From positions 1 through 56,199 of the forward strand of contig DAOWGI010000082.1 in assembly GCA_030637655.1 (NCBI GenBank): a stretch of 56,199 nucleotides of DNA. Direction: 5' to 3'. The translations under genes were made by a program, and so were the position numbers. Under the pieces are notes generated by a model. It was given only the letters and a program-made list of their open reading frames with translations. It was not told the DNA's origin and did not search any database. Shown here in pieces: positions 13,942 through 35,048 of the stretch; position 1 is the stretch's first letter; every line of letters starts with the position of its first letter. The stretch is from a candidate division FCPU426 bacterium. GTDB taxonomy: Bacteria; Oederibacteriota; JAAXVQ01; JAUVAV01.

Positions 13942-14004
13942 TGTATTCTGCCTTCTTCGCGGCGCCGCCCCAACCAATGTCACCTCTTGATTTTCTTTCA
14001 AACA

Positions 14005-14144
14005 GTAGCATGTCAGTAAACTGCAGTTAAACAAAGATTGTCATTCCCGCATGGTTTTAGCGGGAATCTGGTTTTTTAAACCGTATCCCCGATACAAGCG
14101 TTCGGGGATGACAAACTAAGAAAAACACTTCACTGACATATTAC
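14005..14144. mobile_element. MITE-like element, ATGTCAGTGAA TIR family, with GTCATTCCCG hairpin core
   Basis: TIRs gtagcatgtcagtaaa / ttcactgacatattac; core gtcattcccgc..gcgggaat and atccccga..tcggggatgac; degenerate 8-bp flanks ttcaaaca/cttaaaca; core shared with 34874..35048. Confidence 0.72.
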
Positions 14145-14333
14145 CTTAAACAAGATAGAAATATTGCCATACCTTCCTACATAGTATAGTATACAGTATT
14201 TCCGTATTTATTGCCACCTCAACTCCGTAATAGTTTCTGTTGCGAAAAGGTTGTTTTCTTAATGGATTATCGGCCTAAACAGCCCCATTTTTAATCATTG
14301 ACACATTATTTCGGATTTTGATAAACTTTTCTT

Positions 14334-16151: not shown

Positions 16152-18587
16152 TCAAAACTTAAAAGTATAATCCGCGTTCACCCGGACAATTCTTTCCCCT
16201 TTGATATAATTGTCCTTAACAGTATTGTAAACCATTGGGTTTTCAAAAATATTGAAAGCAGCTATAGTCAAACCCACACCTTTATACTTTCCACCCACAC
16301 TGAGATCATACTGGTTCAGCCACTTTGCCTTGATCGGCATAGCCCCTTTTTCAATATCAGAAAACAACTCAGTTACTCCAACCTGCTTGGGCATACGGCC
16401 AAAATGCGCATAGAAATTGAGAAAGAAAAGATTTTCATAATTAAAGCCGAGCATTCCATTGAACATATCCGCCACGCCTTCGGCCCAGGAGGGATGCTGA
16501 GGCGATTGGCGGGAATAAAGGTTAATGCGGGTATAATTTAATTTCAACTGGGTGTAAGCAATTGGCCGAAAAGTACTTTCCAGCTCTATTCCATGGCCGA
16601 TCCGGCTATTGTTATTAGACCAGGAAATCATGGCAGGCGCCTGATTCAATTCTCTCGTATAAAATAATGCGGGCGGAGAATATACAAACAAAGGTGCCAG
16701 CTCATAATCAAATTGGATCTCATCCTTGGTTTCCCAGTAAAAATATCCGCCTTTGATTTGGAACCATTTTCCTATTTCATACTCAATGCCGGCTTCACAT
16801 TGTTCGATCTTTTCCGGCTTTAAATCCGCGTTGCCGACGGCCTCATAAAAACCGTAATTATACTGAGTATAACGTTCCATGAAAACCGGCGCCCGGAAGG
16901 CGCTGCCATATAAGGCTTTTATTCTCAGCTCCGATAAGGGCGAATAAATAATACTTCCGCGCGGGCTGAGATTGCTGCCATAAGCCGTATTATAGTCATA
17001 CCGTAAGCCGGCCAGAATAATTAGATTATCCAGGGCATGATACTCATCCTGGAGATAAAACGCATAGTTCTGGTCTGAAACCGTTTCGCTGGAATAAATG
17101 ATTCCTTGGCACCAGTCGTGGGTCAGGCTCAGGCCGGCAATGAAATAATTATTTTGCGGCCAGGCCAAATCATATTGAGCTTCAAACAGAATTTCATTTA
17201 AGGGCCCGCGCCGGCTCATTTCTTCTTCCAGGAAAGTTCCATCCAATAGTCCCATAGCCTCATTAAAGGTTATGTAATAACCGCCTACAGCGTCTGTAAT
17301 CGGTGAGATGTTGTTGTTTGCATCAATAATCATTATGGCCCCGGGCGGCAGGTCGGCTATGGAACCAATTTTAATTCTGTTTATATTATAAATTACTTGA
17401 CGCGTATCATTTTTATAATAATAAGTATCTTCCAGACGCAGGCTCAACTTGGATAACTCATCTAACTCGAAATTGTATTTCATGTCCAGATAAAAGGATT
17501 CTTCGTAGTTTTGATGCCGCGGAGTGGGGGTATAAACAGAGCCGACAAAAGGATCTTCCATTTTATGATACCCGGCCCGCACCACCCAATCATCCTTGTA
17601 CTTCAAGGACAGATCGGCCTTATTGCCTTCAAATAGCTCATTGGGAGCTTCCAGGTTAATCGGATCAAACCCTAATTGCCGCCAATAACCGGCGCTCACA
17701 GTATAATTGAGATCCCCGGTTTTTTTCCCATAGGTTGAGAGATAATATTGCGAGAGTTCCGCGTCGCCCGGCTTGGAGCCTACGCTCAACTTGGTGTTGA
17801 GGCCGCCAATATCCTGCCCGTCCTTGGTAATAATATTAATAACACCGGAAAACGCGTTGGCTCCGTAAAGCGATGAGCCCGGGCCTTTTACTATTTCAAT
17901 TTGTTTGATATTGTCTAAATTATAACCAAAATTAGCGTTGTAATTTCCAAAATCAATAGTATTTATCTTGCGCCCGTCAATTAAGACCAATATTTTATTA
18001 TTGTAAGAAGCCTGCATACCTCTAAAACGCATGGTTTCAAATATGCCTTCGTAGGCAATCTCCGTGCCGGCATAGTTTATTAACAGCTCCTTTAAGGTCA
18101 AGACTCCTTTTTCTCTGATTTCCTGCTCACTAATAATTGTTACGCTGCCCGGCACTTCGGAAAGTTTCTGCAAACGCTTGGTGGCAGTGGTAACAAAAAT
18201 TTCATCAAACAGCCATAGTTCACTTACCTTTATATTAGAAAGCACAGTTGCTTTTTCAGTTTGCTTCTGTGGTGCGCTTTCTTTAATTGGTTGAACGTCT
18301 TCCTGAGGAACCAACACCTCCGTTGATTTCTGTTCAACAACTGAACCGGTTTCTGTTTGTTCAATTGATTTCTGTGGCGCGCTTTCTTTAATTGGTTGAA
18401 CGTCTTCCTTGGGAGCCAACACCTCCGTGGATTCCTGTTCAACAACTGAACCGGATTCTGTTTGTTCAATTGACTTCACCGGTTTATTATCAATCGTCTC
18501 GGCCATAACTCTGCTTAAACCGAAACTCAAACCCAAAAGCAGACCTGCTCCTGAAATTACCGCGTATTTTAATATCCTCCACCCCAT
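16152..18587 (-). CDS. TonB-dependent outer-membrane receptor
   Basis: Signal peptide; VTTAT TonB-box region; plug motifs LVLIDGR, IKQIEIVKGPGSSLYGANAFSGVINIITK; GNADLKPE; C-terminal Phe; start ATG 18587 after GAGGGGG. Confidence 0.93.
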   Translation of the reverse strand: MGWRILKYAVISGAGLLLGLSFGLSRVMAETIDNKPVKSIEQTESGSVVEQESTEVLAPKEDVQPIKESAPQKSIEQTETGSVVEQKSTEVLVPQEDVQPIKESAPQKQTEKATVLSNIKVSELWLFDEIFVTTATKRLQKLSEVPGSVTIISEQEIREKGVLTLKELLINYAGTEIAYEGIFETMRFRGMQASYNNKILVLIDGRKINTIDFGNYNANFGYNLDNIKQIEIVKGPGSSLYGANAFSGVINIITKDGQDIGGLNTKLSVGSKPGDAELSQYYLSTYGKKTGDLNYTVSAGYWRQLGFDPINLEAPNELFEGNKADLSLKYKDDWVVRAGYHKMEDPFVGSVYTPTPRHQNYEESFYLDMKYNFELDELSKLSLRLEDTYYYKNDTRQVIYNINRIKIGSIADLPPGAIMIIDANNNISPITDAVGGYYITFNEAMGLLDGTFLEEEMSRRGPLNEILFEAQYDLAWPQNNYFIAGLSLTHDWCQGIIYSSETVSDQNYAFYLQDEYHALDNLIILAGLRYDYNTAYGSNLSPRGSIIYSPLSELRIKALYGSAFRAPVFMERYTQYNYGFYEAVGNADLKPEKIEQCEAGIEYEIGKWFQIKGGYFYWETKDEIQFDYELAPLFVYSPPALFYTRELNQAPAMISWSNNNSRIGHGIELESTFRPIAYTQLKLNYTRINLYSRQSPQHPSWAEGVADMFNGMLGFNYENLFFLNFYAHFGRMPKQVGVTELFSDIEKGAMPIKAKWLNQYDLSVGGKYKGVGLTIAAFNIFENPMVYNTVKDNYIKGERIVRVNADYTFKF
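18265..18476 (-). repeat. 105-bp (35-aa) tandem duplication in the receptor N-terminal extension
   Basis: KSIEQTE(S/T)GSVVEQ(E/K)STEVL(A/V)P(K/Q)EDVQPIKESAPQ twice; ttctgtgg recurs at 18265 and 18370. Confidence 0.9.
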
Positions 18588-18782
18588 AATAATCCCCCTC
18601 TTTGTTTGCAATTATTTGTCTGGCAACAAGCTACGACGTATAATAAATGGGGTAAATATCCCCCTATCCAAGTTAAGGATATATTCGGATACTTTTCCTT
18701 AAACCTTTAAATTTTTTTCGGGCCAAGGGCACCATGGATGGTTTTTAAATGAGGGCAGCCGTATGTATTATTAAATTCGCAT

Positions 18783-21498: not shown

Positions 21499-23163
21499 TT
21501 ACTTCTGTTTGTACTCAAGCAGATCCAGTTCTTTCAGGCGCACTTCAATTTCCCGTTTCTCATGCCTATAGGCAGGATATAATCGTAGGGCTTGGCGATA
21601 ATTGTAGGCGGCCTCATCTCTGCGGCTTAAAGCGTGCAATGCTTTGCCGGCCAAGAAGAAGGAACGATAATCCAATGGATTCAGATGGTTGACCTCTTGC
21701 AGCCAGGAGAGACTCTCCTGGTGTTTCCCTTCCTGAAATAGGCGTTGGGCTTCCTGCCGGCCATGCTGATACACCAAATACTCATTGTATTTGCCGGAAA
21801 GCAACAACGGCTCTTCAGCTATGACCTCTTTTTTGTCATACACTGTAAAATCGGAGAGTGAAAAAGGAACAAAACGGCCCAGTTGATGCGGCGAGCGCGA
21901 AATCCAGGCCTTCTGATTTTCCAAATCAAATATCACGGAATGCACACTATTTAAGGTGTTGATCGCCGCCGGATGTCCCAGACCTAAGCGCACCCCAAAT
22001 TCACCGCGCCGATCGCGCAGCACGCCGGCCACCCGGGTTATCGGCAGGGGCGAGGAATGCCGGCGAAGCAATTCCTTAGCCCGGCTTAAACGTGTCAGTG
22101 AGGGACCGCTGTTTCGCACTTCCAGATTGATAGGATCATTCCGTAATTCCGGAGAGACAAAATGATTGCCAACCACAATGTATTGCTTTTGCATCTTACG
22201 GACAATGGTTTTGTCAGGTGTCTTTTCAACAACCACAAAATTGTTCTCCGGTCCGGATCCGATCAGAAAGCTCTCTGCCACCATGCTTTTCGCTGCTTGC
22301 AGGATTTCCACGGCCTCTTTCAGCGTCTTGGCTTGTTCGAGTACTTCCCTGGCCAGCAACATCACCGGCACACCGGACGCCAACGGATGTTGGGTGTGTG
22401 CGGTAAGCAAAGCAATACCCAGCCCTGCTTCATTCATACCACTCAGCACTCCAAAGGATCCCGGCCATGAGACAGCCAGAAAAGACAACCCTTGAGCAGG
22501 CTTTACCAGGAGTACCAGCTTATTTTGATCCCAAATGATTCCGTGCGAAATATCCAGATTATAGGCCAGCAGCGGAGTCTCTTGGTCTACTCTCTCTGCC
22601 AGCAGACCAATCGCGAGGCTTGAAGTTGTGGCCTCTTCCTCCAACGAATGGAGCAAATCATAGAAGGTTTGTGATTGCAGGACCCGGTTGTAAAAAGAAC
22701 CGTACCAGGGATATAAATTCTCAGTGGTTTGTATGTATCCGAAAATTTCTTTTTGAATACCGGGGGACAGATCGCCTATGCTCTCGCTCTGGCGGATAGT
22801 GAGATATCGAATGGCAAGCCAGCGCAGCAAGCTATTGGGTAGTATCCGGTTTAGCCGCTCATGCGCAGCTTGCTCCAGAATCTGGCCGGTTTCCGAAAAA
22901 AAACGTCCCAGGACCGCACCCTGAACCTCCGGAGCTCCGCTTAAAAAACAGGCGGTTAAGCCTTCTCTCTGAAAGGTATAACAATCTTCTATTTTCCGGA
23001 GGCCGGGTTTGGGTTTGCGTATTTTCGCTTTTACCACAACCTCCGCAAGTGAGCTCTGAGGTGGATGCGGCGCAAAAAACATATCCACACCCCAAATCAG
23101 ACACCCTGCGGCAACCATGAATAAACCGAGCATAATCATGGTAATACATTTAAAAACCTTCAT
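21499..23163 (-). CDS. C45-family (Ntn hydrolase/acyltransferase) peptidase-like protein with N-terminal TM anchor and C-terminal TPR
   Basis: VSWPG..GVLSGMNEAG, GNHF, GHPAAIN..HSVIFD motifs; TPR at C-terminus; likely ATG start at 23163. Confidence 0.82.
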   Translation of the reverse strand: MKVFKCITMIMLGLFMVAAGCLIWGVDMFFAPHPPQSSLAEVVVKAKIRKPKPGLRKIEDCYTFQREGLTACFLSGAPEVQGAVLGRFFSETGQILEQAAHERLNRILPNSLLRWLAIRYLTIRQSESIGDLSPGIQKEIFGYIQTTENLYPWYGSFYNRVLQSQTFYDLLHSLEEEATTSSLAIGLLAERVDQETPLLAYNLDISHGIIWDQNKLVLLVKPAQGLSFLAVSWPGSFGVLSGMNEAGLGIALLTAHTQHPLASGVPVMLLAREVLEQAKTLKEAVEILQAAKSMVAESFLIGSGPENNFVVVEKTPDKTIVRKMQKQYIVVGNHFVSPELRNDPINLEVRNSGPSLTRLSRAKELLRRHSSPLPITRVAGVLRDRRGEFGVRLGLGHPAAINTLNSVHSVIFDLENQKAWISRSPHQLGRFVPFSLSDFTVYDKKEVIAEEPLLLSGKYNEYLVYQHGRQEAQRLFQEGKHQESLSWLQEVNHLNPLDYRSFFLAGKALHALSRRDEAAYNYRQALRLYPAYRHEKREIEVRLKELDLLEYKQK

Positions 23164-23316
23164 CCCAACAACCACCAATGCTAAATTTTTCTTGTGTTTT
23201 TCATAGCAGACAATTGTACGTCATCTCTCTGGTCCAGGGCCAGAGTAAAATTATAATATTTTGCCGGTATAGGCTTATTTTGCAACGAAATAGTTAGGCA
23301 CTGTGAAAGTGTAACC

Positions 23317-24594
23317 TTAACGGCGGTCTAATATTAGAAGTGGTTTTGCATACTCATCAATCTTTTGCAAGGATCTGATTTCGGTATCGGACACAAGTCT
23401 GCTCTCTATCTGCAATCCCAGATGTTCATGAATTCGATTAGAAAGCCGTTCTCCCACCTCAGCCTGACCGGCATCCAAGAGGAGTGTTATTTTATCACTA
23501 CCATTTTCCTCTTTCTCCAGTACCATAACATGCGCACGAACCTCCGGATCCCCGTGCACAATACCATGAATGTCCGATGGGAAAACAGCCTGACCGCGAA
23601 TAGTCAAGTGTGTTCTGCGCTGGCTCAAAATCGGACCCAAACGCAAAGTCTTGCGGCCGCAGGTACAGGGGGTGGTTTTAATAAAGGTGAAATCTCCGGT
23701 ACAATAACGCAGCACCGGCATCCCGCTCACACCAAATGGAGTCACACACAATTCTCCCACCTGCCCTTCCGGCACCTGCTTACCGCGATCATCGACAATC
23801 TCGATATGTAAGAGTTCAGGATGCAAATGTCCGCCACAACCGGCCTCACATTCGCTCAAGGAGGTGGACAATTCCGTGCTGCTATAGATCGAGAACAAGG
23901 GCGCTTTCCATATCCGGCTGAGATACGTCCCCAATTCATTTAAAACAAAATTGCACCGGCGTATGGGCTCGTCAATGCACACCACCCGCTGCATATGAAA
24001 ATTCCGGACCTGCTCACCCATCTGCTCAGCTGCCAAGGCAATGGTTTTGAGTTGGGAAGGAATACCCACAATGCAGGTCGGTTTTACTTCACTCAGAAAG
24101 CGAAACATTTGCTCAGGCGCAAGATGCCCCACACGAATAACAGTAGCGCCAATGCGACGCAATCCGAAATAATAGGCCAATCCGGCCATGGTCCCACGGT
24201 CCAGACTTACTGCCAAGGCCACTACATCTTTTTCCGTGATACCAATGATTTTGGCGGAAAGTTGTTCATTGTACGCCAAGCGGGATATATCCGCTTCCGT
24301 GACTTTTATCACACACGGCGTCCCGGCTGTGCCGGAGGTAGTCATAATATCCGCCACTTCTTCCGAACGCACACATAAGAAACGGTCTCCTTCGCGTTGC
24401 AAATCCTCCCGGGAGGTGGTTGCCAGGTGCCGCAAATCGTCCAACGTTTTGATATCCGCCGGCAATATCCTCTCGCGGTCAAACAGGTCGCGATAAAACG
24501 GCGAACGCTGATATATATAATGAATGGTTTTGCGCAATTGCCGGGCTTGGATAATGGAAGTTTCTTCAGAATCAAACATCTCAGTCTTAGCCAT
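23317..24594 (-). CDS. Phenylacetate-CoA ligase family protein
   Basis: TTSGTAG, YSSTE, ECEAGCGGH, GELCVTPFGVSGMPVLRYCTGD, CTCGR. Confidence 0.9.
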   Translation of the reverse strand: MAKTEMFDSEETSIIQARQLRKTIHYIYQRSPFYRDLFDRERILPADIKTLDDLRHLATTSREDLQREGDRFLCVRSEEVADIMTTSGTAGTPCVIKVTEADISRLAYNEQLSAKIIGITEKDVVALAVSLDRGTMAGLAYYFGLRRIGATVIRVGHLAPEQMFRFLSEVKPTCIVGIPSQLKTIALAAEQMGEQVRNFHMQRVVCIDEPIRRCNFVLNELGTYLSRIWKAPLFSIYSSTELSTSLSECEAGCGGHLHPELLHIEIVDDRGKQVPEGQVGELCVTPFGVSGMPVLRYCTGDFTFIKTTPCTCGRKTLRLGPILSQRRTHLTIRGQAVFPSDIHGIVHGDPEVRAHVMVLEKEENGSDKITLLLDAGQAEVGERLSNRIHEHLGLQIESRLVSDTEIRSLQKIDEYAKPLLILDRR

Positions 24595-24666
24595 GCCAGA
24601 ACACCTGATTTCTCTAAAATAAAATTATAAATATTGTAGATTTTCCGCCTGGATATTGTCAACCGA

Positions 24667-26370
24667 TTAAAAAGTCTTGTTGGGCACACTGATTTTTTTT
24701 GTATATTGAAAACCATAGGTGCTGCCCTTGGTTTTTATCCAAACCTGATCCTGATCAGAACCCAGGGACAAGGCTTCCTGCGGCAGCTTGGCCTTGAGTA
24801 CATTTAACAAACAGATCGCTTTTTCAATACCATCCCCACGTTTAAAATTGACCACCTCATCCGGCGTGGCCAACCCGTCTTCATCGTAAATTGATAAGTT
24901 CGGATAAAACGAGAGCGCCTCATACACTTGCTCCGGAGTTTGCTCAGTGAAGACTCTGATGGATACCGGATTTCTTTCTAAACAGGCTTTGAGAAAATAG
25001 TCCCACCCTTTCGCGTCTACCTGCCGGCGCGCATAAAAAGCCAGATCTACCGTGGGATTTTTTTCGCGCAAGCCATTCAAATGTTCGATAATGGTTTCCC
25101 GCGACATGCGCGGATGTATCTGAATAGGTTGCGTAGCAACGTAGATTTTTTCCGGATTAGGCAATCGTGGCTGGGTACAGATAAAGGCTTTCAATTTTTC
25201 ACACAGCGCGTCCAGTTCCGGCAGCTCTGTCAAGCTGTCACGTAGTTCACGGAAATCATCTTCCGTCCGGCAGTGTAAGGGTTTACCATTGAGTCGTTCT
25301 TCAATCATATTAAGCAAAAATCGTTTCGGATTAGGGCAACAGGAAAATTCTTCATTGTCCACTTCTTCCAGGAGTTTCTTGCGGCCGGCATCACCCACTC
25401 GGCATTGACTGCCATGCTCATACCGGTACAGCACTTCAGCCTGTAAATAATGGGTATGCCCCTCGCTCTGAAATTCAAACTGGAAGTATTTCCGGAAACG
25501 CTCATGCACACGCAGAAAATTCGCAAACATCTCAAAATTGACCGGCATGGTCAGATACTGCTGTAAGGATTCGGTAAAACGAGTGTAAGCTTCCTTCCGT
25601 ATGGTGGCTTCCGGGTATTCAATATGTGTATATCCGGTACAATGTCCGACAATAGTAACCTGTTCTTTTTCCAAAGCACGTCTCGCTTTGGTTGACAATT
25701 CGGTCCCATTGAACCACATTTTTTTAGTCACAATACGCCGGTTGTTGGTAATGACTCCCTCTTCCCGCGCCACAAAATTTTGGGAATGCAAAGGTGTGGC
25801 CATAAGAAAAATATCCTCCAAAGGCACCTGCAGCACAATATACAGCGCAGCAGCATATAAAGCAGAGAGCGAAACACATTCGCCGGCCCCTTGCCGATAT
25901 CCGGGCTTGTGGCAAAAAGCATCCATAGCTTCCACGGTCTCGGTTTTCCAATATGGAATTACATCAGAGGTATACTGATCCAAACCAAAATGGCGGCGAA
26001 TGTCCAGATCAAAATAATGCTTATCTCCTGCATAGCCAAAGAGCGCGTTGGAACGGGAAAATATCGCCGGATCCACAAACGATTCAAAACGCTGCAATTC
26101 CCGCGGCTTGCTGGTCAAACCCCAGGTTTCCAAATCCAGATTAAAACTATAATGATCCATAATATATTGCTTCAAACGCTGCATCTGCCGGTTAAAGCTT
26201 AAGGTCTCAACACCTTGAAACCAGGGGTCTTCTTTCCATTTCCAAATACGCGGCGACATGATGTTGGCCAAGACCAGAGCGTATAAGAGCTCGGGAAAGA
26301 TAAACACTTCCATGTCCGACAGCGTAAAGGCGGACGAATATTTTTCCATGGTTTCTTGATCATTCATCAC
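24667..26370 (-). CDS. Conserved hypothetical protein, possible transglutaminase-like fold
   Basis: 567-aa ORF in an operon-like run with 4-bp overlap; GAGECVSLS and LHSQNF motifs. Confidence 0.8.
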   Translation of the reverse strand: MMNDQETMEKYSSAFTLSDMEVFIFPELLYALVLANIMSPRIWKWKEDPWFQGVETLSFNRQMQRLKQYIMDHYSFNLDLETWGLTSKPRELQRFESFVDPAIFSRSNALFGYAGDKHYFDLDIRRHFGLDQYTSDVIPYWKTETVEAMDAFCHKPGYRQGAGECVSLSALYAAALYIVLQVPLEDIFLMATPLHSQNFVAREEGVITNNRRIVTKKMWFNGTELSTKARRALEKEQVTIVGHCTGYTHIEYPEATIRKEAYTRFTESLQQYLTMPVNFEMFANFLRVHERFRKYFQFEFQSEGHTHYLQAEVLYRYEHGSQCRVGDAGRKKLLEEVDNEEFSCCPNPKRFLLNMIEERLNGKPLHCRTEDDFRELRDSLTELPELDALCEKLKAFICTQPRLPNPEKIYVATQPIQIHPRMSRETIIEHLNGLREKNPTVDLAFYARRQVDAKGWDYFLKACLERNPVSIRVFTEQTPEQVYEALSFYPNLSIYDEDGLATPDEVVNFKRGDGIEKAICLLNVLKAKLPQEALSLGSDQDQVWIKTKGSTYGFQYTKKISVPNKTF

Positions 26371-27068
26371 CGCCTGGGACCGCCTCCCCGGCGAGGACGA
26401 CGCGGTTTACGTGGCTGCTTCATTTTCTTTACCTTCCAATGTCCAGCCACCCATACTCCATGACGACTGAAATGCCCTGGCACCCAGAGTTTGCCGGCAG
26501 GCACTGCTTTCCAGCGCCCAATAACCCAGACACCATTTTTATTATAATAGCCTTTAATCCAAGTCTGGTTGGTTTTGGCTTTTAGACGCCAATGGCCCGG
26601 CGCCCACACACCTTTACGATTCCAATGGCCTGGCACCCACACTTTACCTTTGGGCGCTGCTGTGGCCGGACGCCAGTGACCATGTATCCATATCCCGCTA
26701 CGATTCCAGTGACCCGGCGACCAGACCAATCCTTTACGCTTACGTTCACGCCAGCGACCCGGATGCCATCTTCCGCCTGACCGGAAACCTGGTATCCAAA
26801 CCTTGTTTCGCTTCACCACTTTAACCGGTTTCCAGTGACCGGAAATATATTGTTGTTCCTGATTCATATTACCCGGAATCCAAACAAATCCGCCTTTGGT
26901 TTTAGGGCGCCAGAAGCCGGGTGCGACTACTGTTTCGCCGGCTACATAACTCTCTTCCCACCTGTAATCCGGCCCAGGCGCTGCCGGGCGTTCATTTTCC
27001 CGGGCCAATGCAGAAAGCACGCTACCAGCCAGGAACCCAACCACCAATAGATTGATCCATATTTTCAT
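26367..27068 (-). CDS. Secreted YXWGXW/WxxGxW-repeat protein
   Basis: Signal peptide; many W(I/V/S/A)PG(H/F)W units; AGGAGG RBS; basic C-terminal tail. Confidence 0.88.
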   Translation of the reverse strand: MKIWINLLVVGFLAGSVLSALARENERPAAPGPDYRWEESYVAGETVVAPGFWRPKTKGGFVWIPGNMNQEQQYISGHWKPVKVVKRNKVWIPGFRSGGRWHPGRWRERKRKGLVWSPGHWNRSGIWIHGHWRPATAAPKGKVWVPGHWNRKGVWAPGHWRLKAKTNQTWIKGYYNKNGVWVIGRWKAVPAGKLWVPGHFSRHGVWVAGHWKVKKMKQPRKPRRPRRGGGPRR

Positions 27069-27099
27069 AGTCGTTCCTCCTTGTTGTGTATTTCTTCGT

Positions 27100-27972
27100 C
27101 TATGCCTTTACATACCGTTTCATGCGTTGCATATTTTTCAGGTCCGGTCCCAGATCATTAAACCCCGGGGTTTCTAAAATAAATGGCAATTGAGCAAAGG
27201 GTTTATGCTTTAGCATCCGTACCAAACCTGCGCGGCCCACAAATCCCTCACCTAAGTTCTCATGCCGGTCGCGGTGTGATCCGCATAGTTGCTTGGAATC
27301 ATTCAGATGTATGCATCCGATCTTTTGATATCCTATATATTTTTTTATGTCTTGCTCCAACTTTTCAAAACCCTTTTCCCGGGTTAAATCATACCCAGCG
27401 GCAAACAGGTGCGCGGAATCCAGACACACGCCGACTTTGTCACCTAAGGACCGGCTTAAACGCCCGATGGTTTCTAAATCGCCCACACTATTTTTAGTCC
27501 CAGCCATGCCCTCCAGTAAGAGGCGACAGCCTTGAGGTATGTTCGGCAGCAAGGTTCGCAATCCCTTGCGCAGGCGCGCTTCCCCTTGGCCGTCACCCAA
27601 GTCTGAGCCCGGATGCACTACCAAGCTTTGGGCGCCCAAACGTCTTGCTGAGAGCAAATCCCGCTGCAATGATGCTAATGATTTCGCATACACTTCTATT
27701 TTAGGGGAAGCCAAATTGACCAAATAAATCGCATGAATAACCAAGGCCTTAACACCAAGCGCAGCTGCCGCTTCTCGATAGGCGTGAGCTTCGCTCTCTG
27801 TAACCGGACTACTCTGCCAGCCGCGCGGATTGCCGGCAAATATCTGCATACAATTGCATTCCAATTCCTGAGCACGCTTCAGTGTTTTACGTATACCCCC
27901 GGCTGTGGAGATGTGCGCGCCCAGCAGACGTTCAATCTTCTTTTTATTTTTGCCAGGTGTTGCTTCGGGCAT
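27100..27972 (-). CDS. nfo: Endonuclease IV (deoxyribonuclease IV)
   Basis: LGAHIS, QIFAGNPRGW, HAIYLVNLAS, CLDSAHLFAAGYD, HLNDSK, DRHE, LETP; start moved to MPEAT (27972) to avoid overlap. Confidence 0.95.
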   Translation of the reverse strand: MPEATPGKNKKKIERLLGAHISTAGGIRKTLKRAQELECNCMQIFAGNPRGWQSSPVTESEAHAYREAAAALGVKALVIHAIYLVNLASPKIEVYAKSLASLQRDLLSARRLGAQSLVVHPGSDLGDGQGEARLRKGLRTLLPNIPQGCRLLLEGMAGTKNSVGDLETIGRLSRSLGDKVGVCLDSAHLFAAGYDLTREKGFEKLEQDIKKYIGYQKIGCIHLNDSKQLCGSHRDRHENLGEGFVGRAGLVRMLKHKPFAQLPFILETPGFNDLGPDLKNMQRMKRYVKA

Positions 27973-27979
27973 GTTCAGA

Positions 27980-28756
27980 TCACATCCATTCGTAAACTTT
28001 GCAGAACAAGACCAAAATATTTTCAAAATGGTCTTTAAGCCTTTCCACTCGTTTGGCACTGATCCCGCCTTCTGCGTTTAAAAACAATTCTTTGGCAATA
28101 TCAATACGTATCCAGGGTATTTTTTGCTGGGCCTGTACGCGTATTAAATGCCCTCCGGATATCGGGGTATTCAGCAAAACCTGCCCTCGCTCAACAAAAT
28201 CGGAAAATTTGGCAGTCACAATATCCCGCAAATCACAGAGCATGTCCTGTGGACAGGTCAACGGACCTTGACTAAAACCGCTGCCACCCAAAGCATCGCC
28301 ATTGTTGGAAAGACAGATGATGGAACGCGACGGTTTGGCAGCTTCCTGAGTAATAGACGTTGCAGAAAAAACATGGCAATCAACGCCTGCTTTTATTCCG
28401 CCGGATTCCATCACTTTGGTAATAGCGGCATAATAGGTCTGATAGTATTTTGCCAGCATTTGCCGGCGCAAGCTATGAAACAAGCGTCGATCACCGGGAT
28501 AGATCGGATGTCCGTCCGGCAAATATTCGGGCAACGCATCCTCTGCCGGTACATCCAAATGCATTAGCACGGGATGGATATGCGGAACAAGTATGGAATC
28601 CATGCGATGTGACAAAGCAAAAATATCGCCAAGCACGTGTTGCACTTGGTCTGTTTCCCTAAGCTCGGAAATATATCCCATTGCCTTTATTTCTCCAGGT
28701 ATGGCGTGACCTGCTTCCGGCAATGTCAGACATAGTGGAATTAATTTGTGCAGCAT
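27980..28756 (-). CDS. N-formylglutamate amidohydrolase-like protein (divergent)
   Basis: YYQTYY, GVDCH, ICLSNNG, LNTPISGGHLIR, PWIRIDI layout; the first metal-binding His motif appears altered (LPEAG). Confidence 0.7.
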   Translation of the reverse strand: MLHKLIPLCLTLPEAGHAIPGEIKAMGYISELRETDQVQHVLGDIFALSHRMDSILVPHIHPVLMHLDVPAEDALPEYLPDGHPIYPGDRRLFHSLRRQMLAKYYQTYYAAITKVMESGGIKAGVDCHVFSATSITQEAAKPSRSIICLSNNGDALGGSGFSQGPLTCPQDMLCDLRDIVTAKFSDFVERGQVLLNTPISGGHLIRVQAQQKIPWIRIDIAKELFLNAEGGISAKRVERLKDHFENILVLFCKVYEWM

Positions 28757-28758
28757 AC

Positions 28759-29154
28759 TTATTTATTAACTTTCCCAAAACCACTGCTGAGTTTTCGCAG
28801 CAACTCAGCCACAGCTTTACCGGCCCGCTTGAGAAACCCATCCGTGATTTTCCCGGCGTGAGCAGTGGCCTTTTCCGTAGAAATCGCAGCCTGCTCCAGT
28901 CCTTGCTTTGTATGTTGTGACGCTTGTTCCAAAGCTTGCCTGGTCTCTTTTTTTGCGATATCCGCCGCTTTTTCCGTTTCCCGAGCAGCCTGACCCAAGA
29001 CTTTTTCTACGGCTTGGCCGGCTTCATCCAGAGCTTTTTTTGCCTGCTGCACACTCGCTTTTGGCTCTTTGCTTTGCGCCGGCATAGTAAATAAAATAAT
29101 TAAAAGGACACCCGACAAAATACCCACAACGCTCTTACCTGTTATTAATCGCAT
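28759..29154 (-). CDS. Small exported Ala/Lys/Glu-rich helical protein
   Basis: AAAGGAG RBS 8 nt before ATG 29154; signal peptide; amphipathic helical repeats. Confidence 0.75.
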   Translation of the reverse strand: MRLITGKSVVGILSGVLLIILFTMPAQSKEPKASVQQAKKALDEAGQAVEKVLGQAARETEKAADIAKKETRQALEQASQHTKQGLEQAAISTEKATAHAGKITDGFLKRAGKAVAELLRKLSSGFGKVNK

Positions 29155-29258
29155 AATCATCACTCCTTTGATTGATCCTGCCCGTTTTACCCTTCTTAAG
29201 CTAGCACGCCGAAGGAAGGATAAGCAAGATTCTTTTCCTGGCAGGAGAATTATCGCCC

Positions 29259-32200
29259 TTATGATGACCCGGCAATATATCTGCGCCATGAAGGATTGGG
29301 ATTCCGGTATTTATCATACAATTTGATTTTTCCTTCAGGATCAACGCTGCGAATTATCCAATACACACGTCGTCTTTTTATTAACCTGGCCGGCAACGAT
29401 ATGGTGATACTTTGACCCTTATGATTAAGCGTTCCTATGGCCATAATTTTCCGGTTTGGATAAATGACTTTAAACATCGGCTGCAATATTTCCTTCATCA
29501 AGCTTTCCGGATCCTCGGCACTGATAAGTTCTTGTAAAAGTATTTTGGCTATAGCTTGCATGACTTTTGGTGATTTATTTTTATGAATCAAGCCGTCCCT
29601 GACTGCCGCCAAGGCCGGAGTGCCGGCAATAGTTGATTCAGCCAGCATCTCTTGGGCTTGAAGTACCTTTCCAAGATTGGTTTTAGTCAGGTAAGCCCGG
29701 CCATTATAAGCAATCATTGCTTTAAGCAACCAGCGCGAAAGCCGTGATCTCCTCTGCTCTTGCGCTTCCCTAAGCAAGCGTTCGCTCAAGAAACCCGGCA
29801 AATAAAAGATATACCCGCCGTTTGGATTTGGCTGCAGCCACGAACCCGTCATCAAACCTTGCCAGTAACCTAAAATAGTTTGTGTTCTGTTCAGGGTTTT
29901 AATCGTAAGTGTGCGCCCCGTGAGCAAGTCATTGGAAAATACCGGGTTAAAAGATAAGCTTTTAATTAAATTTTCAGCAAACTTAATTTCAATCGTTTTA
30001 TTAGTTATCTCTGATCTTGCTTTGCTGCCGGTAAAGCTTGGAATACTTTTCACAATTATAGACAAAGTCATAATGAGTATAAAACGCAAGCCTTGCCTAA
30101 GTGCATCCAAACCAAAAGGCAGGTAATCTTTTGATAAAGATTTGTTATACGAACGCTGATCTGAACTTATCAGGTCTATGGTTGCCAAAACCGATGCGTC
30201 TTTCGCGCTTTCAAATACTTTCTCCTCTATCTTATTAATAACCAGGGTATGCATGAACGCTCTCGCATCATAACCAATATGCCGGCCGGCAGCTGCCAAG
30301 CCAAGGCTGACAATGATAAGCATTGGTGTGTTTAAGACAAAGGATGCGGTAAAAGCAATATAAGGTGAAAAAGCTATGAATTGTTTAATTGAGTTTTTAA
30401 AATATCCTTTATAATCAGGTATTGCACCCCCAGCCAAATCGGCCCGCCATTGCAACACCTGATGTGTCAGTGCAAAAGCTGCCAGAGCAAGGCCATACCA
30501 TATTTGCCATCCCAGGAGCCCTGATATTGCCCCCGCTATTACTAATGCCGGTATTTCCCATTTTAACCCTGTTTTCCCTGCTTCAACTGCCGCTGCCATA
30601 TCACTTGGATTTTTGTATAGCTGCCAAAAATAGGCGATGGAGACAGGGGATTTAGCTTTGGCCGCTTCCATCTTCTGCTTTTCTGCTTTGTACGCTATTA
30701 TTGGCGCAATTGTTTTGGCAAAGGCTGTTACAAATTCAACTATCAGAAATACTCCGTTAAACACCCCTATGGCTTCATATTCACCGGCTTTGCCTTCTTT
30801 CTCCTCGCCGCGAAATCCGTTTTTATATGTTCCGGTACGATATGTCCCAAACTCCACTTCAATATTTTCTCCAAATATTTTCTTTAAATCTTTATCTTCT
30901 TTAAAATATTTTTCGCGTTTTTCTTTGGATAACTTTGGATTACAGTATTCATCATAGGCAGCAGGATTCATCCAAAATGCCATTTGTCCGGCAAGCCTTT
31001 CCCATTGAACTGAATCCAAGGCCCCCTTGAAAAATTCAGGCATTTGGCCTTCTCCTAAAATACCGGTACCCAGGCTTTGAAATAATTTTCTCATAAATGC
31101 CGCGCTGGTTGCCATATGTTCAGCATTTTTCCAGTCCATATGTTCCCACTTGGTGTCATGATGCCATTTGCCATACAGCAGCATAAGGGTCAGCATGTTT
31201 CTGAATAAAATTTCATTCAGCAATATTTTCAAGCATGCCTCTTCCGAATAAATATCCTTAATATACCCCAAATCCATAGCAAAACTTCCTGGATTCCTTT
31301 TAAAATCAGCCAGTACATCTTCAATACGCATATATTTCTTGCCATCACGTTCATAGCCATCTTTATCAATATTTACCGCAAATACAGCGCCCAACCAATT
31401 ACTGAGACGGCCAAGTTCCTCGCCATTATGGGCCGCCATAGAAAGAAGCGCCAAAGCTCTTGTTTGATCCGACGAATTATGACAAAAATCAGCCGGTTCC
31501 ATATGTACTTCACCTTGGGCGGCATTTTTGCCGCATACTTTGGCATTATTCAGCAATGCTTTTTCAAGCTCTTTTTCTTTTTTGATATATTCATACGTAG
31601 GCGTGCTGTCATAGTTTGATTTTGGCGGAACAATATACGCTGTTGAAATTCCGTCTTGATCCCAGGTGAATTTCTTTCCAGTTGCTTTATAAGCTGTTTC
31701 TGATGCCGCTTTAAGCTTTTTTGCTATTTCTGAACTGTCAGGACAATTTTTAAAATCGAACTTAAATGGAATATCAAATACCGGAATTGGTGTTCTCTTT
31801 GCCTTTTCCTTATTCTCGCTTTTTTTCCAATGCCTAAACACCCCAAGCTCATTTACCAGCAACCTTAAATCTTCCTCATGCTTTTTGCGTTTGATTACCA
31901 ATCGCGTGCCGTCTTCCCATGTGAAAATCACTTTTCTTCCCATAACACGTGTAAAATCCGGGAGCTTCCGGCAATTATATTTATCCGATAATTCTTTAAG
32001 ATTATAACGCTCAAGTGAGTTTATATTTATCCGCTCTAATTTAGAAGCAGATTTGGGAAACTCCGGGTTGGTTTTAAATTCTAATTTCGCGCTATTGGCA
32101 AGTATTCCCCGCATAAATATCAGTGCCGGGTTGAAAGCTTGGCCTCCATCAGATGCTATAACTATCTTTTTTACATTAGGTATTAGTTCAAATATTTTTA

Positions 32201-34754
32201 TAATCCCAGCCCGAGAAAATGTGTCGCGTATTTCTTCAATACTTTTAACTAATAAAATATATTTATTATTCTTAAAAAACGACATAACCTTCATATGTAT
32301 CATTTCTGATATAAACAAAATAATAAAGGAATCCTTAATTTTGGGATATCTTTTATTTTTAACAAATAATCTGGCACTTTCAACATTGCGCATTTCTATA
32401 AATCCAATCACTCTATTTGCTATTTCTATAAATTCCTTTTTATTTGTTATCAATTCTTGTTGCTTTGATATTATTTCAAATAATTCCCAGCAATTTTTTC
32501 CAGCTGCTAATCCCAGCACCACCAAATCCGGCCATACCTCTTTAAACTCCAGGCCATCTATTCCATCTATCATTTTCTTAATTGCCGGCAAAGCACTATT
32601 AAATAATTTATGGCGCCTCTCTCTTGAGACAGGTTCAACAAACAAGGTTGTAAATGGTTTGTAGCCGTAGGCGTCTATGACCTCTTTAAACTCCTCTTCA
32701 AATGCTTCGAAATCATCTATCTCTCCGGACAAATGTAAAATATTTCTTACGTGGATGTCCCTGAGAGTTCCTTTTTTCCAATAATTCGACGCAGACTTGA
32801 GTGTACCTATTGAAGTCTTGCCGGTAGTATCTTTTTTGCCGGCCATCATGAACACGGGTTTTTCCCGTGAAAATAGCTTCGTTATATATTCAACACCCGG
32901 TATCGCCCATGCCGCTCTCTCCCGGAGCTTTGTATCCCGGTACATATAGTGAGCTGTGAGTATTAACAGCACGGCACCTAAGGTCAACAGATTGCCTGTG
33001 AATAAAGCCGCAAGTATTGCAATTGCACTGGTAAAATTTAAAATTCCATTGGGAGTTTGCAGGCCGGATTGAAATTTTGCCGGCATTCTCTTTAATTTTG
33101 ATAGGACTGAGGTTTGTTGACTTAAGGCTTTTTTAGCTTTATTGATGGATGTGAAAAGATTATATCTCCGGCCGGCAATTTCAGGGGACTCCAATGCATT
33201 TTTAAGTTTTCCGGATGATACGATTGCGGTTATTCCTTTGATTTTGGCCTGTTTGAATTTGACTGCTATAAGCCCCGCTCCTTCTTCGGCCTGTTTTACC
33301 ATATCTGTAAATGCCATAAATTTGTCTTTAAATATTTTCATGGTTGGTGTGACTATTTCACTGTCTTGAATTTTTGATCGTAGCGCCATGATATTTTGAT
33401 TTTTTTTCAATAACTTTTCCAACGGTGTTTGTTTATTTTGCAGCAAGTCAAAATATGGATTAAGCACATCATGTTTAGTCAGGCCGGGCTTGATGGAAAG
33501 ATAAGTTATATTTCTGCTTTTAAGTTCCGCCAATACTTCAGCTTTATGAAATCCACCGTGGATCATCACACTTATATTTTGCTCCTGTTCTTCCATCTGT
33601 TTCAGCAGGTTTTCCACAAAATGTGTGCTGCGCTGGTCAGCCAGAGCATAGAACTTTGCCACTTGTTTTAAATACGCATCCAAGGCATAAATATCCATAA
33701 GCCAATCTTCCGGTACGGACGCATTGCCATACACCCCTGTCTTTTGAATAAATTCCTGGAATACCCGCACAGAATATTTTTCCCGTTGAGTACGGAAAAA
33801 GTGCAATTCTTCAGGAGTTACTGAAATACTCAGGAGCTTCTCAACTATATCCAAGCGCTGATAATAAGCATCCAACTCTCGCTGCCTTTCGGATGTATAC
33901 AATCTTCTTCTAATGGCTTTATCCAGGCCGTCTAATTCGCCAAACAATTTTTCCGGTTCTATATCCGGCGTGAAATAACTACGCTTGCTATTTAAGTAGT
34001 GCCTGAGATTTGGATATTGACTGAGATTTATTCCGTGTGTTTGGGCTTTTTTGTGGAGATAGGCTCCATAATGAAAAGTGTCAAACTTACCTTCGCGATA
34101 AGAACAATATTTAGTATTATGCTTTTTTAAGGCCGGATTATAAATATGGGTTTTTATTTCTTCCAGTATCCCACGTAAATCATAAATATATCCCTGGCTT
34201 TCACTATTTAAAAAGGTTTCAACTGCTTTGCGGCTTCCGTAATATAATTCCGGAGTTTCCAGGCCAACCAAGTGTATCGGCTGCTTGCTGGTAATGGCAT
34301 TGTACTCAGCGCCGGTTAATTTCCCCTCGCGCACAAAATAATCACATACTGCTTCTTTGATTGTGTTAATTGGAAACGCGCGATATTCCGAGGTATCAAC
34401 TTTTCCAAAGGCTCCTTCTTCCGCCACCAGCTTCACCTTATGACTTTTTATGAACCGGCTGATTATTGCGGCAATATTCTTTTGCACCTCATAATTGCAA
34501 TGCAAGTCTTCTATACAAATAACGGTTTTGCCGGTTCCTTGAAATCCGTCTTGGATGCGTCCCAGTCTTTTGGGAATAGTAAAAGACTTAGCCGAATGCT
34601 TAACCTGCAGATAGGCCGGCTGTTGCATAAGATAACTGTTTTGATCAAAAGCAAACGACAACCAGGGCAGAATAAAGCTGATGATAACAAGTGAAACTGT
34701 TGTTTTTATTAATCTGTGGAATCGCAATGGATTGGCGCCTCTTTGCAAAATCAT
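29259..34754 (-). CDS. Giant multidomain protein B (1831 aa), paralog of 283..9291, with a central SidJ-like pseudokinase domain
   Basis: IEDLHCNYEVQKNI/EEGAFG N-domain; central MGR..LVIK..E..FCHN..GRLSNW..VNI..RD..WERLAGQMAFWM..IGVFNG motif series. Confidence 0.9.
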   Translation of the reverse strand: MILQRGANPLRFHRLIKTTVSLVIISFILPWLSFAFDQNSYLMQQPAYLQVKHSAKSFTIPKRLGRIQDGFQGTGKTVICIEDLHCNYEVQKNIAAIISRFIKSHKVKLVAEEGAFGKVDTSEYRAFPINTIKEAVCDYFVREGKLTGAEYNAITSKQPIHLVGLETPELYYGSRKAVETFLNSESQGYIYDLRGILEEIKTHIYNPALKKHNTKYCSYREGKFDTFHYGAYLHKKAQTHGINLSQYPNLRHYLNSKRSYFTPDIEPEKLFGELDGLDKAIRRRLYTSERQRELDAYYQRLDIVEKLLSISVTPEELHFFRTQREKYSVRVFQEFIQKTGVYGNASVPEDWLMDIYALDAYLKQVAKFYALADQRSTHFVENLLKQMEEQEQNISVMIHGGFHKAEVLAELKSRNITYLSIKPGLTKHDVLNPYFDLLQNKQTPLEKLLKKNQNIMALRSKIQDSEIVTPTMKIFKDKFMAFTDMVKQAEEGAGLIAVKFKQAKIKGITAIVSSGKLKNALESPEIAGRRYNLFTSINKAKKALSQQTSVLSKLKRMPAKFQSGLQTPNGILNFTSAIAILAALFTGNLLTLGAVLLILTAHYMYRDTKLRERAAWAIPGVEYITKLFSREKPVFMMAGKKDTTGKTSIGTLKSASNYWKKGTLRDIHVRNILHLSGEIDDFEAFEEEFKEVIDAYGYKPFTTLFVEPVSRERRHKLFNSALPAIKKMIDGIDGLEFKEVWPDLVVLGLAAGKNCWELFEIISKQQELITNKKEFIEIANRVIGFIEMRNVESARLFVKNKRYPKIKDSFIILFISEMIHMKVMSFFKNNKYILLVKSIEEIRDTFSRAGIIKIFELIPNVKKIVIASDGGQAFNPALIFMRGILANSAKLEFKTNPEFPKSASKLERININSLERYNLKELSDKYNCRKLPDFTRVMGRKVIFTWEDGTRLVIKRKKHEEDLRLLVNELGVFRHWKKSENKEKAKRTPIPVFDIPFKFDFKNCPDSSEIAKKLKAASETAYKATGKKFTWDQDGISTAYIVPPKSNYDSTPTYEYIKKEKELEKALLNNAKVCGKNAAQGEVHMEPADFCHNSSDQTRALALLSMAAHNGEELGRLSNWLGAVFAVNIDKDGYERDGKKYMRIEDVLADFKRNPGSFAMDLGYIKDIYSEEACLKILLNEILFRNMLTLMLLYGKWHHDTKWEHMDWKNAEHMATSAAFMRKLFQSLGTGILGEGQMPEFFKGALDSVQWERLAGQMAFWMNPAAYDEYCNPKLSKEKREKYFKEDKDLKKIFGENIEVEFGTYRTGTYKNGFRGEEKEGKAGEYEAIGVFNGVFLIVEFVTAFAKTIAPIIAYKAEKQKMEAAKAKSPVSIAYFWQLYKNPSDMAAAVEAGKTGLKWEIPALVIAGAISGLLGWQIWYGLALAAFALTHQVLQWRADLAGGAIPDYKGYFKNSIKQFIAFSPYIAFTASFVLNTPMLIIVSLGLAAAGRHIGYDARAFMHTLVINKIEEKVFESAKDASVLATIDLISSDQRSYNKSLSKDYLPFGLDALRQGLRFILIMTLSIIVKSIPSFTGSKARSEITNKTIEIKFAENLIKSLSFNPVFSNDLLTGRTLTIKTLNRTQTILGYWQGLMTGSWLQPNPNGGYIFYLPGFLSERLLREAQEQRRSRLSRWLLKAMIAYNGRAYLTKTNLGKVLQAQEMLAESTIAGTPALAAVRDGLIHKNKSPKVMQAIAKILLQELISAEDPESLMKEILQPMFKVIYPNRKIMAIGTLNHKGQSITISLPARLIKRRRVYWIIRSVDPEGKIKLYDKYRNPNPSWRRYIAGSS

Positions 34755-34873: not shown

Positions 34874-35048
34874 GTTGCATGTCGGTGAACTGTGGTTAAA
34901 CAAAGGTTGTCATCCGACCGGAAAAATATCGAAAAGGGATGCTAACGCAGCCCGAGTTTTTAATCGGGAATCTAGTTTTTTTAAACCATATCCCCGATAC
35001 AAGCATTCGGGGATGACAAACAGAAAAATCGCATGACTGGCATGTTGC
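34874..35048. mobile_element. Degenerate MITE, ATGTCAGTGAA TIR family
   Basis: Left end gttgcatgtcggtgaactgtggttaaacaaag and core cgggaatct..tatccccgatacaagcattcggggatgacaaac match 14005..14144; right TIR decayed. Confidence 0.68.

Follow-up and report, generated by a model that had tools for sequence, protein, structure and literature searches.

Giant B, an 1831-amino-acid protein of an uncultured seep bacterium of candidate division FCPU426 (GTDB lineage Bacteria; Oederibacteriota; JAAXVQ01; JAUVAV01), contains a domain that family profiles and a predicted structure identify as a true homologue of SidJ, covering the whole SidJ kinase-like domain. SidJ and SdjA are the calmodulin-dependent, kinase-fold glutamylases of Legionella pneumophila. 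The domain of giant B is without the N-terminal domain by which SidJ binds SidE and without the C-terminal calmodulin-binding domain. It represents a rare, divergent branch of the SidJ superfamily, one that lies below both curated NCBIfam cut-offs. As judged by alignment, it retains every residue whose loss cripples SidJ. We lean towards the view, drawn from sequence, model and analogy, that it may be an active, calmodulin-independent and ATP-dependent enzyme that adenylylates and glutamylates proteins, carried at the cytoplasmic face as one interchangeable cargo of a family of membrane-anchored giant proteins. The gene lies on contig DAOWGI010000082.1 of assembly GCA_030637655.1. This stretch of 56,199 nucleotides (positions 1 to 56,199, forward strand) is called the window below, and nucleotide coordinates refer to it unless another contig is named.

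Homology to SidJ and architecture of giant B

The gene for giant B is a complete open reading frame in a window without any N. Its parts, from the N-terminus to the C-terminus and with the methods that define them, are the following.

29259-34754, minus strand: giant B, the complete 1831-amino-acid frame with the SidJ-like domain (open reading frame list and translation)
34647-34703, minus strand: N-terminal hydrophobic segment, amino acids 18-36, a signal anchor or signal peptide (hydropathy and charge counts)
33339-34640, minus strand: conserved N-terminal domain of about 450 amino acids, amino acids 39-472 (blastp, hmmsearch, alignment A2)
32940-33074, minus strand: uncharged hydrophobic stretch, amino acids 561-605 (core 572-602), a probable transmembrane segment between the N-terminal domain and the cargo (hydropathy)
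32253-32939, minus strand: amino acids 606-834, a region of no recognisable family (Pfam, NCBIfam, blastp)
30660-32252, minus strand: SidJ-like module, amino acids 835-1365
30285-30554, minus strand: membrane module of two long uncharged hydrophobic stretches, amino acids 1401-1436 and 1458-1490 (hydropathy)
29259-30284, minus strand: C-terminal region, amino acids 1491-1831, with the stop codon (blastp)

Within the module, the kinase-fold domain that was modelled spans amino acids 899-1365 and corresponds to SidJ 324-765. Amino acids 835-898 form an N-terminal extension that is still homologous to P0013, a paralogue on contig C3 of the same genome. The hydrophobic segment at amino acids 18-36 has four Lys/Arg residues upstream and none downstream. 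For amino acids 606-834, Pfam and NCBIfam gave no match and blastp against all open reading frames of the genome returned the region itself only. Beyond the module, amino acids 1366-1600 are 40% identical to amino acids 3332-3535 of the giant on C46 (blastp; giants on C115, C10 and C63 match more weakly). The C-terminal region (amino acids 1491-1831) has no match in Pfam and is weakly similar to amino acids 3578-3795 of the C46 giant (blastp E 5e-5).

The gene is real and not an assembly artefact, since identical contigs come from other sequencing runs and no frame-breaking indel is listed in a diverged relative. In particular, contigs of X2 and X3, other public runs labelled cold seep metagenome that cover giant B piecewise, match it with 0 differences over 30 of 30 bins in X2 and 28 of 30 bins in X3. 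A contig of X5, from a separate study, holds a relative of the SidJ-like domain that is about 7% diverged (103 differences over 30562-32111), and the comparison with it lists no frame-breaking indel inside giant B.

Single-sequence searches are blind to the domain. Neither phmmer against the PDB sequences nor Pfam returned a match, so SidJ in the PDB is reached only by a family profile. In NCBIfam the only match is NF033874, ‘SidJ-related pseudokinase’ (E 2.3e-8 for the whole protein, 2.8e-9 for the domain alone), which is the best family-library match overall. The domain is nevertheless not a member of that equivalog, because its score of 36.4 bits falls far short of the curated 300 and its match takes in only model positions 119-311 of 507. 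The second family, NF033873 or SidJ_poly_Glu (cut-off 400 bits), gave no match to the domain at E <= 10 and none in the genome at E <= 0.01. An exhaustive phmmer search among 1.84 billion representative proteins yielded only 18 clusters at E <= 1e-3, 12 of them at E <= 1e-10. Complete copies of the domain occur in proteins of 716-3990 amino acids, and one more protein, P0019 (258 amino acids), has part of it. With the domain or its family alignment as query, a homologous-protein search returned the domain’s own cluster and one hypothetical protein only, and a single-domain query against the genome contig collection found no relative locus.

The family alignment (A1) joins the window domain to 16 relatives in 17 rows, at 21-28% identity to the window copy. 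Its profile matched four distinct SidJ sequences in the PDB (10 entries) at E 5e-34 to 1.1e-31, the next match being at E 2, and the matched part runs over profile positions 31-374 and SidJ 345-698. All 17 members match NF033874 (best 2.1e-29), and 12 of the 17 match NF033873 (best 1.8e-28). An AlphaFold2 model built on A1 reached a mean predicted local distance difference test (pLDDT) score of 87.2 and a predicted template-modelling (pTM) score of 0.90. Among the structures listed by Foldseek for this model, the 12 best are all SidJ (E 1.4e-11 to 2.8e-9, query template-modelling score, TMq, 0.62-0.69), and the next stands at E 0.028. The fold is protein-kinase-like and nearer SidJ than any other kinase, and the structural match stops at SidJ 765, before the SidJ C-terminal domain. 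A preliminary description of the window had placed the domain in the SidJ family from its motifs and had named profile and structure comparisons as checks; the family profiles and the AlphaFold2 model both place it in the SidJ superfamily and nowhere else.

Active-site residues

The motifs on which that description relied are all present in giant B, in the order it gave, between amino acids 938 and 1334 (window 30753-31943; exact string search).

amino acids 938-944 (31923-31943): MGRKVIF
amino acids 952-955: LVIK
amino acids 966-969: LVNE
amino acids 1070-1084: NAKVCGKNAAQGEVH
amino acids 1087-1093: PADFCHN
amino acids 1115-1121: GRLSNWL
amino acids 1127-1133: VNIDKDG
amino acids 1135-1140: ERDGKK
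amino acids 1251-1262: WERLAGQMAFWM
amino acids 1329-1334 (30753-30770): IGVFNG

Aligned to SidJ, they cover the kinase-like site and the migrated nucleotide pocket, as had been proposed. SidJ numbering was counted along the alignment of A1 with PDB chain 6k4k_A, and it agrees with the published residue numbers. The key positions are these.

31935-31937, minus strand: R940, equivalent to SidJ R352, kinase-like site
31890-31892, minus strand: K955, equivalent to SidJ K367, the beta3 lysine of the kinase-like site
31848-31850, minus strand: E969, equivalent to SidJ E381, the alphaC Glu of the kinase-like site
31503-31505, minus strand: H1084, a second invariant His where SidJ has F484
31479-31481, minus strand: H1092, equivalent to SidJ H492, migrated nucleotide pocket
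31407-31409, minus strand: R1116, equivalent to SidJ R522, the donor-glutamate binder, in the GRLxxW motif
31371-31373, minus strand: N1128, equivalent to SidJ N534, metal binding
31344-31346, minus strand: D1137, equivalent to SidJ D542, metal binding
31335-31337, minus strand: K1140, at the position of SidJ D545, not conserved

By this alignment R940, K955 and E969 make up the N-lobe ATP site, and their columns are invariant in A1, as are those of H1092, N1128 and D1137. A wider census took in 25 full-length copies, namely the 17 of A1, five from the related genome G031 and three from G030 and G023 (two of the rows duplicate A1 members). The equivalents of R352, K367, E381, H492 and D542 occur in all 25 copies and that of N534 in 24. 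The R522 position is Arg in 18 of the 25 and His, Gly, Cys or Gln in the other seven. At the D545 position an acidic residue stands in 14 copies, and in only one of the 12 rows that form the window copy’s own clade (see below).

Published mutants of SidJ give these positions their meaning. In the available text of Sulpizio et al. (2019), K367A, D542A and H492A abolish SidJ activity and N534A severely impairs it; R352A and Y506A bring a slight reduction, and E381A and D545A have little or no effect. In that study, D545 and Y506, the two positions at which the window copy departs from SidJ, thus tolerate mutation. The available text of the Osinski et al. (2021) preprint likewise has H492A abolish both glutamylation and adenylation. 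There, R500, N733, H492 and Y506 hold the acyl-adenylate, and R522 positions the donor glutamate, with R522A able to adenylate and unable to glutamylate.

The preliminary description had also noticed that the second acidic residue of the SidJ DxxD motif is replaced in giant B (DGKK) and had taken this as a hint of altered chemistry. The replacement is real, as K1140 occupies the D545 position. D545A has little or no effect in SidJ, however, so the DGKK change alone is no argument for a different chemistry. The second acidic residue is probably not a defining requirement of the SidJ superfamily. The reported lack of an IQ motif was borne out as well: strict and relaxed patterns had 0 matches in the 1831 amino acids, with 0.37 relaxed matches expected from shuffled sequences. 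Nor is the domain a phosphotransferase kinase. H1084 takes the His position of the kinase HRD motif, but the family consensus has Ala in place of the HRD Asp, and the domain has neither a DFG motif nor a Pfam Pkinase match, the other marks of a canonical Ser/Thr kinase.

Copies of the domain and the giant-protein family

Within the phylum, the SidJ-like domain was found in 4 of 99 genomes, all of them in the window’s taxonomic family. Its own genome has two copies among 30 open frames with the conserved N-terminal domain (N-domain): giant B and P0013, the 3990-amino-acid frame on C3. In a quick maximum-likelihood tree built from 25 copies, the window copy falls within a clade of 12 rows (SH-aLRT, a Shimodaira-Hasegawa-like approximate likelihood ratio test, 99), whose members all come from the same family. 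The C3 paralogue is sister to the second copy of G031 (support 100).

The largest array is found in G031, a 7-contig assembly. A 12,551-amino-acid open frame (C1:375288-412943) has an N-domain, a hydrophobic segment and five tandem SidJ-like domains (amino acids 1345-5616), and close to its C-terminus a CheR-type protein-glutamate methyltransferase domain (E 2e-8). One polypeptide thus combines two types of enzyme domain that are linked with Glu carboxylates of proteins. In G030, an 1815-amino-acid frame cut by the contig at both ends (C263) has a full SidJ-like domain followed by a partial second copy. The N-lobe is missing from this second copy, which covers only profile positions 156-454, and its residue at the N534 position is Lys. 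The SidJ-like gene of G023 (C1:312083-328425) belongs to a run of four overlapping open frames of 999, 1157, 1171 and 2204 amino acids in different reading frames. Either a giant gene is decaying there through frameshifts, or the assembly contains indel errors.

Giant B belongs to a large protein family in its own genome (3.28 Mb, 91.6% complete), which has 35 open frames of at least 2000 amino acids, the longest of 12,216 amino acids being cut by a contig end. The 30 frames with an N-domain (hmmsearch), several of which are contig-end or frame-split fragments, total 95,466 amino acids or 8.7% of the genome. The N-domain of giant B is 53% identical to that of giant A and 41% identical to that of the C3 giant (blastp). 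Giant A is encoded in the same window.

283-9291, minus strand: giant A, 3002 amino acids, a paralogue of giant B through the N-terminal domain only, with no SidJ-like domain

An alignment of 23 N-domain copies (A2) has invariant residues that include D-x-H-C-N-x-E-x-Q, E-G and G-G-x-H. Its profile had no match in the PDB, and there was no consistent Pfam match among the 23 copies. A Tiki/TraB/ChaN-type fold, suggested by a likeness to GxxH..E..GxGH-like motifs, was considered, with little in its favour: besides the missing PDB match, only one of the 23 copies had a weak match to Cofac_haem_bdg (E 0.069). TraB_PrgY_gumN had no match at E <= 1e-10 in 21 related genomes. A homologous-protein search with the N-domain returned 10 partial hypothetical proteins, and PADLOC gave no match for P0001, P0002 or P0013.

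Across the phylum the N-domain occurs in 15 of the 99 genomes, which are all 11 of the window’s family (G000 included) and all four of a sister family, together one order. Matches number from 7 to at least 17 in each of these genomes and lie in frames that reach 13,678 amino acids; the other 84 genomes have none. Beyond the N-domain, Pfam recognized in the 21 paralogues scanned HATPase_c, Arm/HEAT, LRR, AAA_5, DnaJ, Pkinase, Metallophos, aldose epimerase, GH99, PMI, GT1 and LysM domains, and it left most of their length unannotated. About 20 paralogues have, like giant B, a hydrophobic stretch 150-300 amino acids past the N-domain.

No conserved neighbour gene points to a substrate or to a reversing enzyme. 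Downstream of giant B, a tightly packed run on the minus strand (21499-29289) encodes, in this order, a small signal-peptide protein, an FGase-family amidohydrolase, a xylose-isomerase-like TIM barrel, two proteins of no assigned function, an AMP-binding enzyme and an AAT-family acyltransferase. The N-formylglutamate-amidohydrolase-family gene (27980-28756) was considered as a deglutamylase partner and rejected. When eight neighbours were compared by tblastn with the DNA on either side of the SidJ-like genes of G023, G030 and G031, no match was found, so its pairing with giant B is not conserved. A 176-amino-acid open reading frame that overlaps the stop of giant B has no paralogue. Its true start is probably a Met farther in, with a stretch resembling a signal peptide just behind it.

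Other features of the window stand apart from the SidJ-like domain. The G+C content is 0.38-0.41 over giant B (window 30001-34000), 0.41-0.45 over giant A and 0.45-0.50 over the housekeeping neighbours. A dispersed repeat of about 100-180 nucleotides lies upstream of giant B in an intergenic stretch (34951-35046) and again at 14005-14145. With the 377-nucleotide intergenic stretch as query, blastn gave 172 matches over many contigs of the genome, and contig depth in four metagenome runs was 90-400 on the repeat versus about 5 on the gene. No tRNA and no Rfam family was found in the window, the repeat included. Farther away, a 755-amino-acid protein (11767-14034, minus strand) has an Ig-like domain and a Por_Secre_tail domain (type IX secretion C-terminal sorting). 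Its neighbours are a TonB-dependent receptor (16152-18611) and a tetratricopeptide repeat protein whose N-terminus is FadL-like (9628-11433).

Proposed activity and relation to known systems

If the module is active as we propose, its kinase-like cleft (R940, the K955-E969 pair, N1128 and D1137) would bind ATP and Mg and move AMP onto a protein carboxylate, probably a Glu side chain. The acyl-adenylate would be retained in the pocket of the catalytic-loop insertion, formed by H1092 and by N1333 in the GVFNG motif, which probably corresponds to SidJ N733 (by the aligned range of the structural match). R1116 would orient a free glutamate, whose attack would then form an isopeptide bond. With no calmodulin-binding tail, the module would be constitutively active or controlled by its neighbours in the giant protein, and with no SidE-binding N-terminal domain it would have a substrate other than SidE. 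The SidE family model PF12252 (SidE_PDE) had no match in the genome, a model that also matched 0 of 14 control genomes. The module most likely faces the cell’s own cytoplasm, where ATP and glutamate are available. Hydropathy predicts this orientation if amino acids 18-36 export the N-domain and amino acids 561-605 cross the membrane once. The cargo of the paralogues fits as well, since it includes nucleotide-using domains of a cytoplasmic type (DnaJ, AAA_5, HATPase_c, Pkinase and GT1).

Several findings on topology and on catalysis weigh against this picture. To begin with the membrane, no strong hydrophobic stretch separates the N-domain of P0013 from the SidJ-like domain, and the relatives P0008 and P0018 have only the N-terminal signal-like segment. 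The same domain would thus be outside the cytoplasm in these proteins and the topology of the family is inconsistent, a kind of implausible predicted localisation of enzyme domains that is also met in an Omnitrophota giant-protein preprint. A signal-like N-terminus with no later hydrophobic stretch before the SidJ-like domain, which P0007 has as well, would suit exported cargo. The giants would then be a polymorphic delivery family, and the SidJ-like domain would act only in the cytoplasm of another cell (host, prey or competitor), where a different activator replaces calmodulin. We regard this as unlikely, while granting it real points. A conserved N-terminal module with highly variable cargo is the layout of polymorphic effector and toxin families, the cargo includes types frequent in the effectors of intracellular bacteria (Arm/HEAT, LRR, DnaJ, Pkinase, SidJ-like), and SidJ itself is injected and inactive before it encounters a factor of the host (Osinski et al. 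2021 preprint, in its available text). However, neither a VirB4-type ATPase of a type IV secretion system (T4SS) nor a sheath protein of a type VI secretion system (T6SS) was found in the 91.6%-complete genome, in searches whose controls gave matches for both families. Moreover, the several long hydrophobic stretches of giant B suit a resident membrane protein, no host is known, and the N-domain has no recognised secretion-related fold. We give a smaller chance still to an extended form of the idea, a hitherto undescribed deployment of enzymes by the whole order. Its N-domain giants (7 to more than 17 per genome) would carry interchangeable effector-like modules (SidJ-like, DnaJ, protein kinase, LRR, Arm, AAA) and pass them through the envelope to other cells with neither a T4SS nor a T6SS. 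The SidJ-like modules, of which as many as five stand in tandem and whose donor-site residues differ, would in that case stay silent until they reach a foreign cytoplasm and there glutamylate targets or ligate amino acids to them.

The remaining adverse findings concern catalysis. The window copy has Ala at the Y506 position, and Y506, R500 and N733 mutants of SidJ are ‘markedly reduced’ in the available text of the Osinski et al. (2021) preprint. The R500 equivalent is not placeable, as pLDDT drops below 50 in the loop that follows H1092 (model residues 196-214), and phmmer with the C-terminal 110 amino acids of the relative P0020, a sequence test of the N733 equivalence, gave no SidJ match. 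In the X5 relative N1333 reads Arg and the C-lobe has many non-synonymous changes; of the 32 changed codons that are readable, 18 are non-synonymous and 14 synonymous (39 of 182 differences shown). No other end branch in its clade is as long as that of the window copy (1.8 versus about 0.5-1.3), which fits relaxed constraint. This branch, the Ala and Lys at the Y506 and D545 positions, the changes in the X5 relative and the decay seen in the partial G030 copy would suit a degenerate or purely structural pseudoenzyme that has kept its fold as a scaffold or binding module and lost catalysis. We doubt that this is so, because the window copy keeps the equivalents of K367, D542, H492, N534 and R522, and because every one of the 25 copies keeps the same five residues of the kinase site and pocket while identity is no higher than 21-28%, which argues for selection on catalysis. 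A last explanation keeps the adenylation and changes what follows: the domain would be an AMPylase, or a ligase with a donor other than glutamate, its second step being different or absent. The variable R522 position, the divergent and poorly modelled pocket loop, the SidJ R522A mutant that still adenylates, and the existence of AMPylases among kinase-fold pseudokinases (SelO and others) would allow this. It seems very improbable for the window copy, in which R1116 and H1092 preserve the Arg and His of SidJ R522 and H492, and there is no positive evidence for another donor. The reading that we prefer remains an active glutamylating module at the cytoplasmic face.

Compared with SidJ (PDB 6k4k, 6oqq, 6plm, 7mir, 7ppo), the domain shows its motifs in the same order and retains counterparts of R352, K367, E381, H492, R522, N534 and D542, together with a catalytic-loop insertion that forms the migrated pocket. 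It differs in that it is only 15-18% identical, is without the SidE-binding N-terminal domain and the C-terminal IQ helix, and has Lys at D545, Ala at Y506 and an extra invariant His at the F484 position. In addition, its host is a giant membrane protein, whereas SidJ is a soluble T4SS effector. The preliminary description had presented it as a SidJ-type enzyme in a giant membrane protein outside Legionella. The host protein is as described, and occurrence outside Legionella is not new, because SidJ homologues with no IQ motif and no SidE partner are already in print from diverse bacteria, archaea and viruses (Sulpizio et al. 2019; Osinski et al. 2021, available text). The domain of giant B, too, has no IQ motif, and its genome gave no match to the SidE model. 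That text, supplementary figures aside, mentions neither tandem arrays of these homologues nor their occurrence as domains within giant proteins of many modules.

The giants themselves recall those of Omnitrophota, the ‘Archaeovorins’ and other multi-enzyme giants (bioRxiv 10.1101/2023.11.21.568195 and 10.64898/2026.06.07.730766). These are likewise very long open reading frames with an N-terminal signal or anchor, many hydrophobic segments and strings of divergent enzymes (HATPase_c, AAA_5, methyltransferase, GT1, HEAT), often on an implausible side of the membrane by prediction. The lineages differ, as the relatives here are labelled Candidatus Firestonebacteria, Goldiibacteriota or candidate division FCPU426. 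Unlike the Omnitrophota giants, the family is defined by its own conserved N-domain of 450 amino acids, and no SecA_DEAD, C39 or S8 domain was seen in the 21 paralogues scanned. The word ‘SidJ’ occurs 0 times in the two Omnitrophota preprints. Our literature search found no link of SidJ to Firestonebacteria or to giant proteins and no description of an order-wide family of N-domain giants; the supplementary figures of the SidJ papers (Black 2019, Sulpizio 2019, Osinski 2021) may list members of the branch. Three things appear to be undescribed: giant membrane proteins with a fused SidJ-like domain, the tandem array of five and the order-wide family.

What these proteins offer is a view of SidJ chemistry away from its host-cell setting. 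SidJ is, to our knowledge, the only kinase-fold protein glutamylase with a worked-out mechanism, and we know of no such work that did not go through calmodulin activation and SidE substrates. A calmodulin-independent module of the SidJ type with the full set of essential residues, from a non-pathogenic environmental bacterium, would provide a test of how the fold is activated without calmodulin and of what else SidJ chemistry modifies. The five-copy array, in which the donor Arg varies naturally, would be a ready-made specificity series. Altogether, the N-domain giants add a second lineage to the question of what purpose giant multi-enzyme membrane proteins serve in bacteria.

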